Shown: positions 1-21,500 of the stretch, piece after piece
Layout: each line of letters opens with the position of its first letter
Position numbering within the stretch: position 1 is the stretch's first letter
DNA from: a virus
Strand: one strand, 5' to 3'
Virus record (IMG/VR): IMGVR_UViG_3300017917_002937
Span: 21,172-85,171 of that record
Length of the DNA: 64,000 bases
The notes under the pieces: generated by a model
Seen by the model: only the letters and a program-made list of their open reading frames with translations
Databases searched by the model: none
What the model was told of the DNA's origin: nothing
Position numbers and translations under genes: made by a program

Positions 1-645
1 ACTAGACATATTAACAGTGCGTTCAATGAAACTCTGTGTTTCCTTGTTCTCGCCCTGTGCATCATCCTGCGTTTTCTGTAATTTATTGTCAACATAAAAT
101 TTTAGTATGTTAGGTTTACGACCACGTTCAATCTTATAGTCTGTACCATTTACGTTAAAATCTAATGTAACTAACATACCTTTACTATTGGTACGATTTA
201 CAAGATTATCCTTACGTATATTATTTATTGGTACACCAAATAATGCATAACATAACCCTTGGATTAAGGTTGTGTTATGTGACAGTATTTCGTTAGTGTA
301 ATATCTATGGTCAGGTGAATCAACGGTAATATCGTACATGTTTTCTTCTCTAGTCGAAGAAGTAATTGTGTGTACCTTTTCAATTCCTGATGAAGTTAAT
401 ATATGTGATTTATAAGGAATTAAGTTTTTTACAAATATTTCTGTAGCATTATCAGTGAAAACAATATGATCGTCAGCACATTCTAGCTGTTTTCCTGTTT
501 CTGTTTCTATTGTCCAAACAGTATAAGGTATTGTTTTGTGTATTTTGGAAATTGGCTTCCAACCAGTATCAGTTTCTATTTCTAAATTATTTAAATTTAG
601 ACTTTCTATGAATTTTCTTTTTACTGATTCAGAAAGTTTATGCAT
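1..645 (-). CDS. 46: C-terminal fragment of fractured gp46 (Rad50/SbcC-like recombination ATPase): 124-aa IntC plus C-extein; runs off the window
   Basis: Not in the ORF track; translated by hand. ATG at 645 with AGGA upstream gives MHKLSESVKRKFIESLNLNNLEIETDTGWKPI...LECADDHIVF...MYDITVDSPDHRYYTNEILSHN|TTLIQGLCYALFGVPINNIRKDNLVNRTNSKGMLVTLDFNVNGTDYKIERGRKPN..., open to base 1. The sequence after HN is typical of gp46 just after Walker A. Confidence 0.93.
   Translation of the reverse strand, partial: MHKLSESVKRKFIESLNLNNLEIETDTGWKPISKIHKTIPYTVWTIETETGKQLECADDHIVFTDNATEIFVKNLIPYKSHILTSSGIEKVHTITSSTREENMYDITVDSPDHRYYTNEILSHNTTLIQGLCYALFGVPINNIRKDNLVNRTNSKGMLVTLDFNVNGTDYKIERGRKPNILKFYVDNKLQKTQDDAQGENKETQSFIERTVNMSS
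274..645 (-). mobile_element. Split intein C-fragment (IntC, 124 aa)
   Basis: Block B-like CADDH, block F MYDITV..H.Y, block G ILSHN followed by Thr+1 (codon 273-271). Confidence 0.92.
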
Positions 646-1709
646 TTGTTGATTATTCCTTGTTTGTCTTTTTTGTATTCCGACTCCCAGATTATTAATA
701 CAGTGTACCCATCATCATTAAGTAACTTTATTTTTTGACGGTCATGATCCCATATTTTTTCTGCGGTTGTTTTTTTTATGACATCTGTGGCTTTAAATTT
801 GTTAGGATTGGCATGCCAATAGTCACCATAGAACTCTATAATTTTTTTTTGTAGAACATCAATACAATCTATAGAGTATGACATATTGTTTATTCTTAAT
901 ACAACCTCATTATAACCAAACTTTATATTTGGGATATTGCATTTTATGGATTCAAACAACTCAAGTGATATTTTTGAAAATCCACCATGTAATCCCGATT
1001 TTTTTAAAGAAGACAGCCATTTAATTTGTCGTTCGCTCCAAATTTGTAATCCTTTTTCTTCTCCATATTTTTCAACACATTTTTTTTGTGAAAATAAAGT
1101 TTGAGCTTCTGTAACTTTGTTTGTTGCTTCTTCTTTTGAATAGCCTCGTAACATCCAATACTCAATAGTACGATGACTATGTGCTCTTATACGGTTAACA
1201 TTTCTGTTTTTTGATGCTTTCGCTCCCATGCTATTATTAAAGTTTTTTTGATTTTGTGCCAAAAATAAGGCGATTTCATCATCGTACCCTTTATTAATCC
1301 AATATTCTTTTCTTATAGGTCTTCTAGAATTTCTTTCAAACTCAGCCTCGGCGAATGTATATTTTTTTCCTGTTTTAGGATTAATTCTGTCTGTCCAAAA
1401 ATTAATAGAGTAAGTGCTTTTTCTTACTGTTTTACTATTAATGTCCTTCATACACATTTTAGCCTTAATTTCTGCTGACAGTTCGTCCCAACCCCTACTA
1501 AGCCAATATTTTTTTCCTCCCTTACCTACTCCAGGTAAGGTTAGCATATTTTGTCTTACAATGGCTTCACATTTTTTAACACTAGTTATGTCAACATGAC
1601 ATAACAATTTTTCTCTAATTGATGCCATGAGGTTAGGTTCTATGTTTTTAATAATTTCTATCAATGTTTTATCTATTATTTGGGTCAGTGTAAATTTTGG
1701 CTGCTTCAT
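621..1709 (-). mobile_element. Free-standing homing endonuclease, Vsr-like (EDxHD/PD-(D/E)xK type), between the split-intein halves
   Basis: C-terminal SIDCID..KIIEFYGDYWHANP...HDRQK...GYTVLIIWESEY is Vsr-like. N-terminal repeated YW..RG(Y/W) motifs. Overlaps both gp46 fragments; GGAG RBS upstream of the ATG at 1709. Confidence 0.85.
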
Positions 1710-1788
1710 ATAATTCTCCCATAGTTATAGAGCATATCTCACCTGTGAGAGTGTTTCTTACTCTAACTATAGTATTTATCCCAACGCA
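1669..1788 (-). mobile_element. Split intein N-fragment (IntN, 39 aa)
   Basis: Cys1 codon at 1788-1786 directly after GTGK; CVGINTIVRVRNTLTGEICSITMGELYEAAKIYTDPNNR then stop. Confidence 0.9.
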
Positions 1789-1938
1789 CTTACCAGTACC
1801 ATTACGTGCACCGTCACCACCTAAGTCTAAGTTCTCACCTAATATTAGTGTTAACTCTTTTCTATCAAAGTTTACTGCTTGTGTGACTTGTCCAATAGAC
1901 AAAAAATTACGCAAGGTTATATTTTTTAGTGTTATCAT
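1669..1938 (-). CDS. 46: N-terminal fragment of fractured gp46: 50-aa N-extein plus 39-aa IntN
   Basis: MITLKNITLRNFLSIG...LILGEN...GARNGTGK is the Rad50/gp46 N-terminus up to the Walker A Lys, followed directly by intein block A CVGINTIVRVRN. Start overlaps the gp47 stop (ATGA). Confidence 0.93.
   Translation of the reverse strand: MITLKNITLRNFLSIGQVTQAVNFDRKELTLILGENLDLGGDGARNGTGKCVGINTIVRVRNTLTGEICSITMGELYEAAKIYTDPNNR
1773..1780 (-). promoter_or_regulatory. Putative late promoter GATAAATA embedded in IntN codons (G-I-N-T), 64 nt upstream of the endonuclease start
   Basis: Same octamer as found before the late structural genes in this window. Confidence 0.55.
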
Positions 1939-2948
1939 AGTGTGTTATAGATATCCAATAATAATTTTTTATCAAAACTATTACTTTCAATAGCGTTAAT
2001 CTGATCTACGATGATTTGGTCAACGCTTTCAAATTTCAGTCCCTCAAAATTACCTTGGTCAACATTTTCTAATTTCATTGGTATTAATGTCATTTCACGT
2101 AGTTTGTATTCGGGAATAAATGTTTCACGTAGAAAGTTAGCTTCTTCATAACTTATATCAATATCTAGGTGTACCCTAACATGGCTATCAATTAATAGCA
2201 AGCCCTGTGGATTATCTAATATATCGCTAAGTTTATGTACACGGTATACAGGTTGTCTTGGCCAACTATGAAAAACAGGGTCTTTACCCCATTCTAATAT
2301 CATCATACCACGTGCATCATCACCTGCGTCAGCATAATTATGCGGGAAAGCGTTACCTATATACCAAATATTTTTACGTGCTTGTCGTTTATGAAAATGT
2401 CCACTGAAAGCACTTTCAAAACCAACAAAATGTTCTTCATTAATTTCGCCATGATCTGGCATCTCTACCATAGCATTCATATAAAAATGAGGTAATTCTA
2501 AATGTCCAAACAAATATTTACCTGACATTTTTTTGATTTTCTTGTAGTCATCCTGTACTAACCATGGACAAATAACTACATCATCTTGTTTAAAAAAATC
2601 ATTAACAATGTGTACATTTGGTAAGTGATTAGCCCATTCTACACTATGAATGTCACGACGGTCACGATAATATAAGTCATGGTTGCCTGGAATAAAATAT
2701 ACTTGGCTAAAGTTTTGATTTAGTTTTTCTAATGCTTTTAATCCAAATTGTAATGTTTGGATGTTTATACTAGCACGATGATGATTATAGTCACCTAAAA
2801 AGAAACAAGTATCACATTGTTCCTTTTTAGCTTTATCTATGAACCAATCAACAAAGTTAGCACAATCAATATTGTGCTGTAAACTATTTGACTTTAAACC
2901 GAAATGCACGTCGGTAAAAATTGCTGCCTTTTTAAATAAATTACTCAT
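1935..2948 (-). CDS. 47: gp47-like recombination nuclease subunit (Mre11/SbcD metallophosphoesterase)
   Basis: DVHFG, LGD, GNHD and SGHFH metallophosphoesterase motifs; adjacent to gp46. Confidence 0.93.
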   Translation of the reverse strand: MSNLFKKAAIFTDVHFGLKSNSLQHNIDCANFVDWFIDKAKKEQCDTCFFLGDYNHHRASINIQTLQFGLKALEKLNQNFSQVYFIPGNHDLYYRDRRDIHSVEWANHLPNVHIVNDFFKQDDVVICPWLVQDDYKKIKKMSGKYLFGHLELPHFYMNAMVEMPDHGEINEEHFVGFESAFSGHFHKRQARKNIWYIGNAFPHNYADAGDDARGMMILEWGKDPVFHSWPRQPVYRVHKLSDILDNPQGLLLIDSHVRVHLDIDISYEEANFLRETFIPEYKLREMTLIPMKLENVDQGNFEGLKFESVDQIIVDQINAIESNSFDKKLLLDIYNTL

Positions 2949-2954
2949 TTTATA

Positions 2955-2983
2955 AGTATAACTTTAATTTTTACACAATTCAA
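2955..2983 (-). promoter_or_regulatory. Sigma70-like promoter for gp47 (TTGAAT-N17-TATACT), overlapped by an 8-bp inverted repeat
   Basis: -35 at 2983-2978, -10 at 2960-2955, ATG 6 nt further on. ATAACTTT/AAAGTTAT inverted repeat at 2989-2982 and 2965-2958. Confidence 0.55.
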
Positions 2984-2996
2984 AGTTATTGGTTAA

Positions 2997-3896
2997 TTAT
3001 TCTTCAAAGACTGGACCTATAGATCCAACTCCTTGTCTAGACCAAGAAGGATTTAATCCATTTATTTCTAAAATGTCATCACGTATGTTTTGATTTCGTT
3101 TTTCTGTGTTTAATACACGACAGAAACTATTTGTTATAGCGGCAGTGTAATAAGCAAATGGGTTAGCTGACTTCGCTTCATTGAATCGTAAACCCACATA
3201 TGTAAGTTGAAGTATTGCACTATTTTGCATTTCATCTCTGTAAGTATACCCACGCCAATTATATTTCATGGCATATTTTTCACACATCATAATATACATT
3301 CTAGCCAATTTATCTGTAATTGTACCGTGTTCCTTGCTAAATTTACCAGTCTTGATACCACCTGTCCAATGACTTTTACCTACACAATAAAAACTATCAT
3401 TTTCATCAATTTTGTAATGTTGAAAAGGTGGAAAATTTACTTTAACATGAACCATGTCGTCTACTTCATCTTTAGTAGTTGTATCTTCTAATTCAACAAA
3501 TATATCATCTTCATCGTCTTCAAATTCAAAAATATCAATAGCGGTTCTTTTTTTATTAGTTTTCCTAGGTTGTTTAGTAGATATAGGTATATGTTCCCAA
3601 GTCATTACCCTAAACACTAAATCTGTAGTAGGTATTGATTTTGGATCTACAAGGTCTTTAGCTCCTTTTTCTAATGATAATCTTAGTGCTCTATTTTCTT
3701 TAGCCTGTTTTATAATATCACGTTTTTTTGCATATTTAAAACATTCTTCAAGTGAACTTTGCGGCATGTCAATAATTAAATCATACATATGATATTCTTT
3801 TTTAGTAAAATAACAATATGATGATTTGCTTGTGTGTATTTCTTTTAATATGTCTTTATTGTTAAGGTAGTTAACCGGTTTTTTGGAGGTACTCAT
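2997..3896 (-). CDS. 55: gp55-like late-transcription sigma factor
   Basis: NYLNNKD N-terminus, NWRGYTYRDEM and NPFAYYT...FCRVLNTEKRNQ motifs; T4-like 55-47-46 gene order. Confidence 0.85.
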   Translation of the reverse strand: MSTSKKPVNYLNNKDILKEIHTSKSSYCYFTKKEYHMYDLIIDMPQSSLEECFKYAKKRDIIKQAKENRALRLSLEKGAKDLVDPKSIPTTDLVFRVMTWEHIPISTKQPRKTNKKRTAIDIFEFEDDEDDIFVELEDTTTKDEVDDMVHVKVNFPPFQHYKIDENDSFYCVGKSHWTGGIKTGKFSKEHGTITDKLARMYIMMCEKYAMKYNWRGYTYRDEMQNSAILQLTYVGLRFNEAKSANPFAYYTAAITNSFCRVLNTEKRNQNIRDDILEINGLNPSWSRQGVGSIGPVFEE

Positions 3897-18500: not shown

Positions 18501-21500
18501 CATTGTCTACGTTTGGTGGTTTAAGTTATAACACTGATTATTATGTTCAATCAATTGTTAATTCAACAACTTTAAAATTAAGTACAACAGTAAATGGAGA
18601 TCCAATTAATTTGACTACAGGTTCAGGTACAATGAATTTTGATTGGACTCCTAGAAGCACTGAAATTACTATTGCAGCAGATGACGTTACAGGCTTATTA
18701 ACAGAAGGTAACTATATTACCGACTCTACTAATTTATTACCAAATAACTCTTATATTGTAGAAATTACAGGTACTACTACATTTACAATTACAGTAAGTT
18801 GGCCAGAAAGTTCTAATCCATTTTTTACATCAACGAGTGTAGCATCATTTATTACTACAGATACTACTGTTGATAATTATGCACTGTTTGATGGAGCAAG
18901 AATTGTTTTTGCAAATGACACAAACTTAAATGTTAGAAATAAAATATACATTTCTAAATTTCAAAGTATTACAGGAACAAGCACACCAGTTATAACATTA
19001 ATCGAAGCACTAGATGGTACAGTATATGAAAACGATCAAACTGTAAGTAAGAGGGGTTATAACAACACAGGTATAGATTTTTATTTTGATGGAAATAATT
19101 GGATAAAAGGTCAACAAAAAACAGATATAAATCAAGCTCCATTATTTGATATATTTGATAATAACGGAATAAGTTTTGGAAATAGGGACATATATGTTGG
19201 TTCAAATTTTAATGGCTGTAAACTATTCAGTTATAGTATAGGAAACGGTATCGATGATATAGTATTAGGATTTCCTATAAAGTATAGTAATATTGATAAT
19301 ATCGGTGATATTTCTTTTGATGTGAATTTAAACAGTGACACATTTGATTATGTTACAGGGTCAACACCTATTAATCAAAATGTAAGTAAAGGTTATGTTT
19401 ATAATTATTTGACTAGAGAATTATATGAAAGAATGTTGGGTTGGCAAACAGCAAAATATCCAAGTGTGCAATATCAGCTTTTCCAGTTTAACTACGTATT
19501 AGGGGATGATAATTCATTTTTATGTGATGTGGCTGCTAATATTGTTGATAGTTGGCCTAACATTAGAGTTTTTATTAATAATAATTTAGTAGCAACTGAT
19601 AACTTTACAACATTAATTGGTAGTAATTCAACTACTGTTACTATTGATTCTATTTTACTTTTAGAAAATACAGTTATTCAAATTTTAATACTTAGTGATC
19701 AAGTTAGTTTAACAGCTTATTATACCACTCCTATTAACTTAAATAATAATCCGTTTAATGTAAACATAACTTCTGTTAATGTTGGTGAAATAAGAGGGCA
19801 ATATCAAAGTATATTTTATAATAATACTAATTTAACAGGTCAAGTTTTTGGATCAAATAATTTTAGAGACTTGGGTAATTTAGTACCATATGGTGACAGA
19901 ATAATACAAAATAGTGCCAGTCTTGTATTACCTGGAGTCTTTTTAAGAAAACAAGATTGTAATTTGTTTGACGCACTTTTGTTTAATAGTAAACAATATA
20001 TTTTATATAAAACTTTACTTGTTTATACTGTTAATAATTCAAATTATGAACAAAGATATAATCCTAGTGAAATTTTAGATGACGCTCTTGATCAAATAAG
20101 TGCATCAAAAACTGACAGTATGCCATTCTTTTGGAGTGATATGCTACCAGGTAAAGCAGCTTATATTATTAACAATTACACCTTTGCTAATAGTTTAAGT
20201 GTTTCAGTTTATCCACTGTCTAAGATTTATGATTTTACCTCTGCAAATTATAATGGATTGTTGGTATACTTACAAAGAACTGCAAATAACATTGTAAATA
20301 CGACACAACTTATTATCAATCAAGATTATACAGTAAGTGCTACAGCACCATCACTCACTATCACACTTCAATTACAACCTGGCGATACTATAATTGTAAA
20401 AGAATATAATCAAACATATGGAAGTTATGTACCAAACACTCCAACTAAATTAGGTCTATATCCTTCATTCATTCCTGAAGTTGTACTGGATACAACATAT
20501 TCTACCCCAACATATTTTATAAAAGGACATGATGGTTCATATACTAAATTATATGGCGATTATGATAGTACCAATAATTTACTTATTGATTTTCGTGATC
20601 AAGCTTTACTAGAATTTGAACGAAGAATTTATAATAATTTAAAAATTAATGATATAATACCTATACAATCTTACGAAATAACACCTGGCTTTTTTAGAGA
20701 TACAGGTTATAGTTATAATGAATGGTTAGAAATTTATAGTGTAAACTTTTTAAATTGGATAGGTCAAAATCGTTTAGATTATGAATCACAAATTTATAAT
20801 AAAAATAATCAATTCACATTTAATTATGACAATAGCGGAATTAAATTAAACAATAAACCAATTGAACAGGGTTATTGGAGAGGAGTCTATACTTATTTCT
20901 ATGACACTAGTACTCCTAATCTAACTCCTTGGGAAATGATTGGGTACAAAAATCAGCCTAATTGGTGGACCGATCGTTATGGTCCTGCACCATACACAAG
21001 TAATAATTTAATACTTTGGGAAGATATGGCTAATGGTATCGATTATAACAATGGTAATCCAATTGTCATAAACGAACTTAAGAGACCTGAGTTATTACAA
21101 GTTTTGCCAGTTGATTCTTATGGTAATTTATTAAGCCCATTTGATAGTATTGTAGGTAATTTCAACGAAAGACTATTTAAAAATGATTGGAAAGTTGGCG
21201 ACGACGGTCCTGTTGAATTTAGCTATAGAAGAAGTAGTACCTATCCATTTGATTTGATGAAAATTTTAGCATTGACTAAACCTGCTAAGTTTTTTAACTT
21301 AGGAGTTGATGTTGACAACTATAAGTACAACTTAGAATTTAATCAATATTTGGTCAATGATAGAAGTCATTTAATTATATCAGACATTGAAATATATGGA
21401 AATGGTACTGCAAAAACAAGTTATATTAATTGGATAGTTGATTATCAAAAACAAGTTGGCATTCCAGCAACTACAAATATTACAAACATTCTTAAAAATC

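Follow-up and report, generated by a model that had tools for sequence, protein, structure and literature searches.

Fractured genes were described in environmental phage DNA by Dassa, London, Stoddard, Schueler-Furman, and Pietrokovski in 2009 (PMC2677866) as phage genes of DNA metabolism that are divided into two ORFs on the same strand, each carrying one half of an intein, with a free-standing Vsr-like ORF between them. The locus studied here shares all of these features. Most of the inteins in that 2009 set are said to be split at the conventional site, which leaves a long IntN and a short IntC. The only case from the Mre11/Rad50 system in the text of the 2009 article is, unlike our locus, an SbcD-like gene that has a Vsr-like ORF but in which no intein was recognised (PMC2677866), and neither its main text nor that of Novikova 2016 mentions Rad50, SbcC, or gp46, though the supplements may list them. 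A similar architecture is seen in AceL-TerL, GOS-TerL, and their consensus Cat (6dsl), atypical split inteins that likewise stem from phage hosts in environmental samples and are split between blocks A and B, with a short IntN of 25, 37, and 30 aa, respectively (39 aa at our locus), and, for Cat, a long IntC of 104 aa (124 aa here; PMC11766414, PMC10189870). Work on inteins by Thiel 2014, Bachmann and Mootz 2015, and Stevens 2018 is cited in a review (PMC11766414). These TerL inteins differ from ours in their insertion point, a downstream site in TerL as opposed to the Walker A motif of gp46, and GOS-TerL uses Ser1/Cys+1 as nucleophiles instead of Cys1/Thr+1, an ordinary pairing that is found in 12% of Cys1 inteins (PMC11766414).

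Among inteins with solved structures, the best match to our IntC by sequence is VidaL (PDB 6vgv/6vgw), likewise an atypical intein with a short IntN. Burton 2020 is said to give the length of the VidaL IntN as 16 aa, in which case VidaL would be split earlier in the fold than the gp46 intein. In its two-part architecture, the endonuclease resembles I-Bth0305I and the EDxHD family, which combine an N-terminal DNA-binding region with a C-terminal Vsr-like nuclease and accompany inteins and introns of phage genes for recombination (Taylor 2011, PMC3239194). Our literature search returned no paper on an intein in gp46, for which supplementary tables of the key surveys may list cases, and contiguous inteins are also known from viral Rad50/gp46-type ATPases (bioRxiv 10.64898/2026.07.21.739742). 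Gene 539 of Salicola phage SCTP-2, annotated only as a hypothetical protein, has an intein at the identical GK|TT position that starts with Ala and not Cys; this intein and those of the preprint are unsplit and large with an internal endonuclease region, whereas the one described here is split. The gp46 protein is thus a new host for a known kind of element. The initial annotation overrated the novelty of the case: fractured genes have been known since 2009 and short-IntN inteins from 2014 onward.

The window that we analyzed is a stretch of 64,000 nucleotides (positions 21,172 to 85,171 of IMG/VR record IMGVR_UViG_3300017917_002937) from an uncultured, T4-like freshwater jumbo phage, and a megablast of its positions 1-3000 against deposited phages gave no match. 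All genes discussed below lie on the minus strand. A gene of 337 aa at 1935-2948 encodes a gp47/SbcD-Mre11-like nuclease (PHROG_100, SbcD-like, E 1.5e-62; Pfam Metallophos, E 7e-6, above cut-off), and its stop codon overlaps the start codon of the gp46 N-fragment directly downstream in a shared ATGA. This N-fragment ORF of 89 aa (1669-1938) consists of a 50-aa N-extein (1789-1938; PHROG_77 profile positions 295-333), which ends on GARNGTGK as the first part of Walker A, followed by the 39-aa IntN and a stop. The C-fragment starts at ATG 645 and leaves the window before its end; on the whole contig it comprises 658 aa (L003:169-2145:-), beginning with 124 aa that end in ILSHN and continuing with TTLIQG and the rest of the C-extein. 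Within the window, this C-extein covers 1-273 (TTLIQGL..., with Thr+1 at 271-273; PHROG_77 from profile position 334), and it runs 443 codons past the window's first base, to G000:C1:19840, for a total of 534 aa. These ORFs, their coordinates, the end of the N-fragment, and the start at 645 agree to the base with what had been annotated. The exteins match PHROG_77 (SbcC-like) with E 1e-23, and the "recombination endonuclease subunit" from Pseudomonas phage PA5oct shares 47% identity with gp46. Compared with uninterrupted gp46 genes, the N-extein is 94-98% identical to the N-termini of six relatives (L007-L010, L012, and L030) and the C-extein 74-89% identical. Judged by this homology, the interrupted gene is gp46, a predicted Rad50/SbcC-like ATPase of the ABC type that has its Walker A near the N-terminus, would contain a long coiled coil, and is encoded beside its Mre11/SbcD partner. 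Scans for promoters and terminators stayed at chance level (23 promoter-like sites vs. 23.1 expected).

The cassette measures 1515 nt (window 274-1788) and sits in the Walker A codons of gp46. Alignment to the PHROG_77 profile breaks at 333|334, exactly at the junction of N-fragment and C-extein, and in 21 of 35 related viral loci NG[TV]GK is followed directly by T or S in one frame; since both observations coincide, the junction is not a chance resemblance. Such uninterrupted alleles read GDGARNGTGK|T[TS]..., and over 20 aa one of them (L012) does not differ from the window's flanks. The comparison with intein-free gp46 that had been proposed thus bears out the idea that the joined halves would rebuild the P-loop as GARNGTGK-TT: the relatives read GK|TT unbroken, and N-extein plus C-extein make up 584 aa that are colinear with uninterrupted gp46 in these 21 loci.

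IntN (1669-1788, including its stop codon at 1669-1671) begins with CVGINT, with the Cys1 codon at 1786-1788. Its first ~27 residues are conserved, while the last ~11 form a variable tail whose DNA also encodes the 5' end of the endonuclease gene. The 124 aa of IntC (274-645) hold blocks B, F, and G: block B reads ADDH (codons 466-477, its His being IntC His60), block F has Asp105 (331-333) and His113 (307-309), and block G ends with His123-Asn124 (274-279) right before Thr+1. The letters therefore agree with the earlier description of a split just after block A, of all further blocks on IntC, of ADDH in place of TxxH, and of Thr as +1 nucleophile. The start of IntC is preceded by a weak ribosome-binding site, AAGGAA, at a distance of 11 nt. 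With N- and C-fragment in one frame, the endonuclease ORF in another, and stop codons throughout the N-fragment frame across the endonuclease gene, gp46 is expressed as two polypeptides at best, N-extein with the 39-aa IntN and the 124-aa IntC with C-extein.

The profile search that had been suggested found the intein similarity of IntC, as Pfam Intein_splicing matches with E 8e-6, but the score of 26.2 bits stays below the gathering cut-off of 35.8 bits. Searches of the PDB with the single sequence returned VidaL (6vgv, E 2.9e-5), CatC (6dsl_B, 1.9e-4, a weak similarity that points to a distant relation), and gp41-1 (6qaz, 5.6e-4), and a family profile of IntC matched VidaL with E 7e-11 and CatC with 2.4e-4. 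By sequence comparison, the closest solved relatives are hence the atypical split inteins VidaL and Cat (TerL), plus gp41-1. In the alignment, IntC residue 15 corresponds to CatC residue 11, which puts the start of both fragments at the same place, and the split between blocks A and B lies at the position of the known atypical split inteins of the AceL/GOS/Cat-TerL type. We infer that IntN and IntC together would form one class 1 HINT domain.

A free-standing homing endonuclease gene with its own start and its own frame (621-1709, 362 aa; phrog_22677, E 5e-19) occupies this A/B split point instead of lying between blocks B and F, as is usual. Its ORF shares 41 nt with the N-fragment and 25 nt with the C-fragment. 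Its N-terminal and middle regions are made of repeated YW..RG/KGY modules, and its C-terminal region (~281-345) is a Vsr-like, EDxHD-type nuclease domain. Among 215 homologues, several of which have been named Vsr endonuclease by JGI, a sample of 58 showed E292 and H299 to be invariant and D281, D296, W298, and D323 to be at least 90% conserved. The Glu, Asp, His, and Asp of the EDxHD family correspond to E292, D296, H299, and D323 (PMC3239194), so the endonuclease keeps the residues that define the Vsr-like/EDxHD class according to Dassa 2009 (PMC2677866) and Taylor 2011, and the Vsr-like gene proposed between the intein halves is indeed present; the residues were mapped onto Vsr by alignment together with the description in Dassa 2009. 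Sequence similarity is faint: the C-terminus scores under the cut-offs of Pfam MTES_1575 and DUF559, and Vsr structures align over the catalytic stretch with E 0.64 (single sequence) or 0.098 (profile). The solved domain of I-Bth0305I (3r3p) gave no sequence or profile match at E<=10, and the N-terminal repeats of the endonuclease (YW..RGW, EYW..KGY) were hit by no Pfam NUMOD model.

Taken together, the locus is very probably a mobile fractured-gene cassette in the Walker A motif of gp46 in which trans-splicing restores the protein and the endonuclease drives homing. The most likely way for the two gp46 proteins to be rejoined would be a lopsided split intein: IntN and IntC would associate into the predicted HINT domain, Cys1 would form a thioester that is then handed to Thr+1, and cyclization of Asn124 would release gp46 with an intact P-loop. 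The EDxHD/Vsr-like endonuclease would in turn cleave gp46 close to its P-loop codons in co-infecting relatives whose allele lacks the intein, and recombinational repair would copy the whole cassette into the cut allele. If so, the cassette copy in gp46 would depend for its homing on the same recombination nuclease that it interrupts, and many uncultured jumbo phages would obtain an essential ATPase of recombination and repair only through protein trans-splicing.

Alternatively, the intein halves might have lost splicing and only keep the two parts of gp46 in a non-covalent complex by binding each other, as reported for a phage NrdA that a mobile endonuclease has divided (PMC3045599); both the low Pfam score and the Ala in place of the block B Thr would fit. 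This Ala is a family trait (74 of 74 aligned relatives). In the PolB16 intein, a conserved motif that is usually crucial, and which may not be block B, proved dispensable (PMC10189870). Mere interaction would require neither nucleophiles nor a His-Asn dyad, yet these are nearly invariant over hundreds of sequences: Cys1 is kept in 71/71 N-fragments and 26/26 unsplit forms, the SHN motif in 73 of 74 aligned relatives and 261 of 266 family proteins, and position +1 holds T in 196 of these 266 proteins and S in 68, with the block B His and block F Asp present in all 74 aligned relatives. An unspliced complex would moreover leave ~163 foreign residues within the Walker A loop, and unsplit relatives with the same residues (P0025 and the TerL forms) must splice to have any P-loop, all of which makes a purely non-covalent assembly improbable.

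Two ORFs where one is expected, next to an endonuclease gene that is selfish DNA, could also mean that gp46 is a pseudogene inactivated by the insertion. Such a gene should not show exteins under strong purifying selection (dN/dS 0.05-0.10, with 0.10 for the C-extein) or be free of stops and frameshifts within both fragments. IntC is itself under purifying selection with dN/dS of about 0.1 (0.13 against L005 and 0.105 against L006; 0.16 for the endonuclease). The two-ORF layout is also kept across lineages with 23-89% extein identity, and the fragment ends are conserved in 71 N-fragments, as found among the 120 matches listed (GK|C followed by a tail of 33-46 aa, most often 39), and in the 106 C-fragments of split gp46, so that we regard inactivation as very unlikely.

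Still less credible is that the interruption is removed at the RNA level, as a group I or II intron with an endonuclease ORF, or skipped by ribosomal bypass, to give one continuous intein-containing protein. Vsr-like endonucleases do occur in recA group I introns (Dassa 2009, PMC2677866; Taylor 2011, PMC3239194), and the shared frame of N- and C-fragment would fit as well. But no Rfam family, introns included, matches positions 1-3000 on either strand at E<=1, and the endonuclease ORF takes up the entire gap and extends into both fragments, so that an intron core would find no non-coding space, which rules out a group I/II intron. Against bypass, IntN and IntC lie in different frames in three of the seven related loci with coordinates for both (L033, L034, and L036), and the Met at the start of the IntC ORF, conserved in 227 of 266 family proteins, argues against both routes. 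Finally, although the window comes from a metagenome-assembled viral contig, possibly out of run X1, an assembly or sequencing error that conceals one contiguous intein with an in-frame endonuclease has a negligible chance and is refuted as far as contigs can show, with single contigs from three other studies spanning 242-1843, 242-1815, and 242-1822 with 3, 1, and 1 substitutions and zero gaps, no insertions or deletions listed among public contigs over 1-2400, at least half of the cassette's 31-mers present in 16 runs from 11 studies, the same three-ORF layout in L005 and L006 at 77-92% nucleotide identity across the segments compared, and an in-frame endonuclease domain ruled out by the separate frame of its ORF and the stops in that of the N-fragment. 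Contigs from an RNA library (X18) also sit on parts of the cassette, which is not proof of transcription, just as the parts without cover carry no meaning.

Contrary to the rarity that the initial annotation implied, the arrangement is abundant: searches for the intein family returned 775 proteins at E<=1e-3, a further search gave 915 cluster representatives, and 106 of 266 family proteins examined are split gp46 forms (extein classes were assigned by BLAST to three reference exteins, with 17 of the 266 unclassified and 18 with unresolved N-terminal leaders). The family occupies the P-loops of gp46, TerL, and DnaB-like proteins, with hundreds of clusters in metagenomes. Its TerL members sit at gp17 K166|T167, a site that presumably differs from that of AceL-TerL. 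We tentatively entertain, without favoring it, the broader idea of one large and moving intein family specialised on P-loop GK|T/S that colonised phage ATPases unrelated to each other, namely gp46/Rad50, TerL, and DnaB-like helicases, and passed between split and unsplit states with gain or loss of the endonuclease. For protein engineering, the family offers hundreds of natural split inteins with short IntN (33-46 aa), Cys1/Thr+1 or Cys1/Ser+1 nucleophiles, and P-loop-like junctions GK/TT, and could be mined for ligation tools. Neither this prospect nor the dependence of gp46 on splicing opens a new concept, as descriptions and uses of fractured genes go back to 2009 and those of atypical split inteins to 2014.

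The cassette is much younger than the gene around it, since dS is 0.12-0.36 for IntC, endonuclease, and IntN as opposed to 0.82-1.72 in the flanking exteins, which fits homing; codon or overlap constraints might account for some of this lower dS, above all in IntN, part of whose DNA also belongs to the endonuclease gene. Occupancy is sporadic (3 of 80 viral loci interrupted vs. 77 uninterrupted), and runs X7 and X9 hold contigs that skip exactly 1515 nt (274->1790, with 3 letters ambiguous) beside the occupied form. Depth differences between cassette and flanks are sums over contigs of several phages and hence not frequencies. The three-ORF layout with an endonuclease recurs in L005, L033/L034, and L046/L048/L049. 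In L006, the endonuclease ORF has decayed through two frameshifts while IntN and IntC are intact, as a homing cycle predicts. With occupied, empty, endonuclease-decayed, and re-fused alleles all in public data, the cassette would be a clean natural example of such a cycle.

A FastTree phylogeny of 267 IntC segments (124 columns, weak support) showed clusters that follow the host protein. The supported branches force a minimum of 1 change, which is compatible with a single entry into gp46, and we therefore do not claim repeated jumps into this gene. The unsplit counterpart at the same gp46 site (P0025, 749 aa, 13 contigs) runs from IntN directly into IntC; a search for its DNA in IMG/VR and JGI metagenomes returned 160 loci, zero of them with an unsplit intein. 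As a further sign of mobility, P0025 and P0037, one fused and the other split, are 97.6% identical in IntC and 49% identical in their C-exteins, and the start Met of IntC is still present in the fused form P0025.

The source record is an IMG/VR viral contig of 85,171 bp with a CheckV completeness of 18%, and the window is its right-hand 64 kb. Its gp46 extein is nearest to a "recombination endonuclease subunit" of the Pseudomonas phage PA5oct (about 286 kb; 47% identity) followed by those of 440-490-kb phages, Phosso, Atu_ph07, and SCTP-2 among them, which makes a jumbo T4-like phage the probable identity of the virus. On the minus strand, a gp47/SbcD-like gene (1935-2948) is followed by an N-fragment ORF of 89 aa (1669-1938) composed of 50 aa of gp46 ending in GARNGTGK and 39 aa starting from a Cys (IntN, the N-terminal intein half), by an endonuclease ORF of 362 aa (621-1709) in a frame that differs from that of the N-fragment, and by a C-fragment ORF that starts at 645 and extends past the window to a full length of 658 aa on the contig (L003:169-2145:-). 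The C-fragment product comprises 124 aa ending in SHN (IntC, the C-terminal intein half) and then TTLIQGL with the remaining gp46. The gp47 stop and N-fragment start overlap (ATGA), the endonuclease ORF shares 41 nt with the N-fragment and 25 nt with the C-fragment, and GGGAGAA precedes the endonuclease ORF while AAGGAA lies 11 nt upstream of the IntC start. The N-fragment matches the SbcC-like PHROG_77 profile as far as position 333 and the C-extein takes over at position 334, so the break in gp46 is exact.

The match of IntC to Pfam Intein_splicing stayed below the cut-off (E 8e-6), and the best matches among solved structures were all inteins, namely VidaL (6vgv; E 2.9e-5, or 7e-11 with a profile of 74 relatives), CatC (6dsl_B, a consensus atypical TerL intein; E 1.9e-4), and gp41-1 (6qaz; E 5.6e-4). 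Across the 74 aligned relatives, no substitution occurs at the block B His, block F Asp, or block G Ser, 73 keep the block G His and 73 the block G Asn, and Cys1 is found in all 26 rows that include the N-terminal part. The Ala of block B ADDH (instead of TxxH), pointed out in the initial annotation, is found in 74 of 74 relatives and is a family trait, not a defect of this copy. The +1 residue is Thr (57 relatives) or Ser (16); inteins that pair Cys1 with Thr+1 are common (PMC11766414). The split-intein interpretation is supported, and the proposed mechanism, in which the two halves would splice in trans and the endonuclease would spread the cassette by homing, is very probable.

The concern that two assembly frameshifts might hide one contiguous intein is excluded as far as contigs show, since single contigs in three runs, none of them from the study that may be the source, span 242-1843, 242-1815, and 242-1822 without gaps (3, 1, and 1 substitutions, respectively), the related viral contigs L005 and L006 share the three-ORF layout, and the endonuclease gene has stops throughout when read in the N-fragment frame. 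No indels in 1-2400 were listed among the public-run contigs, and 16 public runs from 11 studies of pond, lake, freshwater, and aquaculture samples each contain half or more of this region's 31-mers. The reported fracture of gp46 into halves that flank an endonuclease ORF is confirmed.

Comparison with related alleles locates the insertion precisely. A search with the C-fragment yielded 35 viral loci, of which 21 carry an uninterrupted gp46 in which N- and C-extein abut in frame (GDGARNGTGK/T[TS]LIQ, the slash marking the insertion site), including one (L012) identical to the flanks in the window across 20 residues; in 5 others gp46 is split as in the window (L005, L006, a partial L004, and L033 and L034, both distant), a further 4 carry this IntC in different genes, and the junction is missing from the last 5. 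A second gp46 lineage is uninterrupted at 77 of 80 viral loci, with a 1527-nt IntN-endonuclease-IntC insert at the other 3, and at 79 of 80 metagenome loci, with no junction at the remaining one. The end of the N-fragment is conserved: among the 120 relatives listed of 184 matches, 71 end in GK/C with a tail of 33-46 aa (mode 39), another 47 correspond to parts of uninterrupted genes, and 2 belong to neither group. Unsplit forms exist as well, in that P0025 (749 aa; a cluster of 7 members whose representative is on 13 contigs) joins IntN straight to IntC at the same site between GK and TT; P0071 and P0113 likewise carry the intein unsplit in gp46, and P0022 is a partial protein of the P0025 type.

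The endonuclease has 215 homologs, several of them labeled "G:T-mismatch repair DNA endonuclease (Vsr)" by JGI. An alignment of 58 homologs shows no variation at E292 and H299 and almost none at D281, D296, W298, and D323. The alignment with E. coli Vsr is below significance (E 0.64 with the single sequence, 0.098 with a profile) and sets conserved residues on Asp51, Trp68, His69, and Asp97 together with a Glu at Vsr Phe62, the residues listed by Dassa 2009 (PMC2677866), the last as family specific. The composite motif has been named EDxHD in work on I-Bth0305I, which cleaves only the uninterrupted allele (Taylor 2011, PMC3239194). Structure searches with the endonuclease did not find the solved I-Bth0305I domain, so assignment to the EDxHD/Vsr-like enzymes rests on motif and context. 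A module (YW..RGW / EYW..KGY / EYW..RGYS) recurs at least 3 times in residues about 60-235 and is conserved in the 58 homologs (W105 and W137 invariant; Y68, W69, R72, G73, W74, Y184, and G189 at least 90%); the repeats have no Pfam match and presumably form a DNA-binding array of undescribed type. A free-standing 293-aa ORF between gp47 and an uninterrupted gp46 (L011:3983-4864, plus strand) shares the middle repeat module (37% over 138 aa, E 2e-26) and has a different C-terminus, HNH-like by eye and without Pfam match. Beside the same target gene, one DNA-binding module apparently combines with two nuclease types.

The intein is constrained as strongly as its host gene, with dN/dS of 0.13 (against L005) and 0.105 (against L006) for IntC, 0.16 (against L005) for the endonuclease, and 0.10 for the C-extein. 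Against L005 and L006, dS in the cassette (IntC 0.32 and 0.35; endonuclease 0.34; IntN 0.12 and 0.36) is much lower than in the flanking exteins (N-extein 1.10 and 1.37; C-extein 0.82 and 1.72), so the cassette's shared ancestor is more recent than that of the surrounding genes. The contrast is stronger still between the unsplit P0025 and the split P0037, which are 97.6% identical in IntC and 49% in their C-exteins. Contigs in two public runs (X7 and X9) join 274 to 1790 (with a 3-letter ambiguity), and since joints at 90% likeness can stem from other organisms, we read them as related phages; the omitted 1515 nt are exactly the cassette (274-1788), which argues that intein-free relatives coexist with the occupied form. 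The endonuclease gene of L006 (L006:3935-5022) lies in three frames through two frameshifts, which point to sequencing errors in A-runs or to decay of the homing endonuclease, and its IntN and IntC are intact (85-93% identical to those of the window). Together, these observations match the prediction of a homing cycle in which invasion would be followed by fixation and then endonuclease decay, with the intein retained because the host gene would need it. Within gp47, two low-depth contigs from the same runs lack 104 or 120 nt at 2165-2286, probably length variants of related phages.

The IntC family is large, with 775 of 851 candidates at E<=1e-3 in a 90%-clustered database and matches to 915 representatives of 50% clusters (553 at E<=1e-10). 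Among the 269 matches listed, 266 have a near-complete IntC: 110 in gp46 (106 split, 4 unsplit, none with unresolved leader), 132 in TerL (102, 16, and 14), 7 in DnaB-like helicases (5, 0, and 2), and 17 in unclassified hosts (14, 1, and 2). GK precedes the intein in all aligned unsplit forms, and on the T4 gp17 structure the profile breaks exactly at Walker A K166/T167; P-loops are a recognized intein hotspot (PMC4760082). IntC relatives occur in 345 deposited phage genome records, and the 40 listed include none in gp46, all being under terminase or hypothetical genes. Two TerL fragments (P0086 and P0117) begin with IntC of the gp46-cassette family. Past the first TerL segment comes a second short piece, IntN-like and starting with Cys, joined in frame to an endonuclease that resembles the GIY-YIG type and has NUMOD3 (Pfam PF07460, a precomputed assignment for P0086). 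These TerL genes would then have two fractures, and their second endonuclease would be attached to the short intein piece. Another TerL, P0055, combines two inteins of different state in one gene: its N-terminus is the P-loop IntC, and farther downstream lies another intein that is unsplit.

As the initial annotation had stated, there is precedent for such elements: a 2009 study (PMC2677866) described fractured genes that combine split inteins with Vsr-like endonucleases, and natural atypical split inteins whose IntN measures 25, 37, 30, or 15 aa are characterized tools (PMC11766414, PMC10189870). We found no published description of a split intein in gp46, Rad50, or SbcC in the article texts searched. 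A 2026 preprint (bioRxiv 10.64898/2026.07.21.739742) mentions inteins of viral Rad50-like ATPases, but those that it describes are unsplit Hint-endonuclease fusions, unlike the split halves in this gp46. What is new in the finding is the host protein; the kind of element is known, and the arrangement is abundant in freshwater phage metagenomes. The finding is valuable for its rich natural allele series and its pool of short-IntN inteins rather than for a new principle. Salicola phage SCTP-2 gene 539 (L199:2352-5117, MF360958.1), a 921-aa "hypothetical protein" adjoining a gp47 homolog, is a gp46 with a large insert at the same site between GK and TT; whereas the window intein is split and starts with Cys, this insert is unsplit, with Ala first and HN last. 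It is an unannotated intein in a cultured phage, possibly one without an N-terminal nucleophile.
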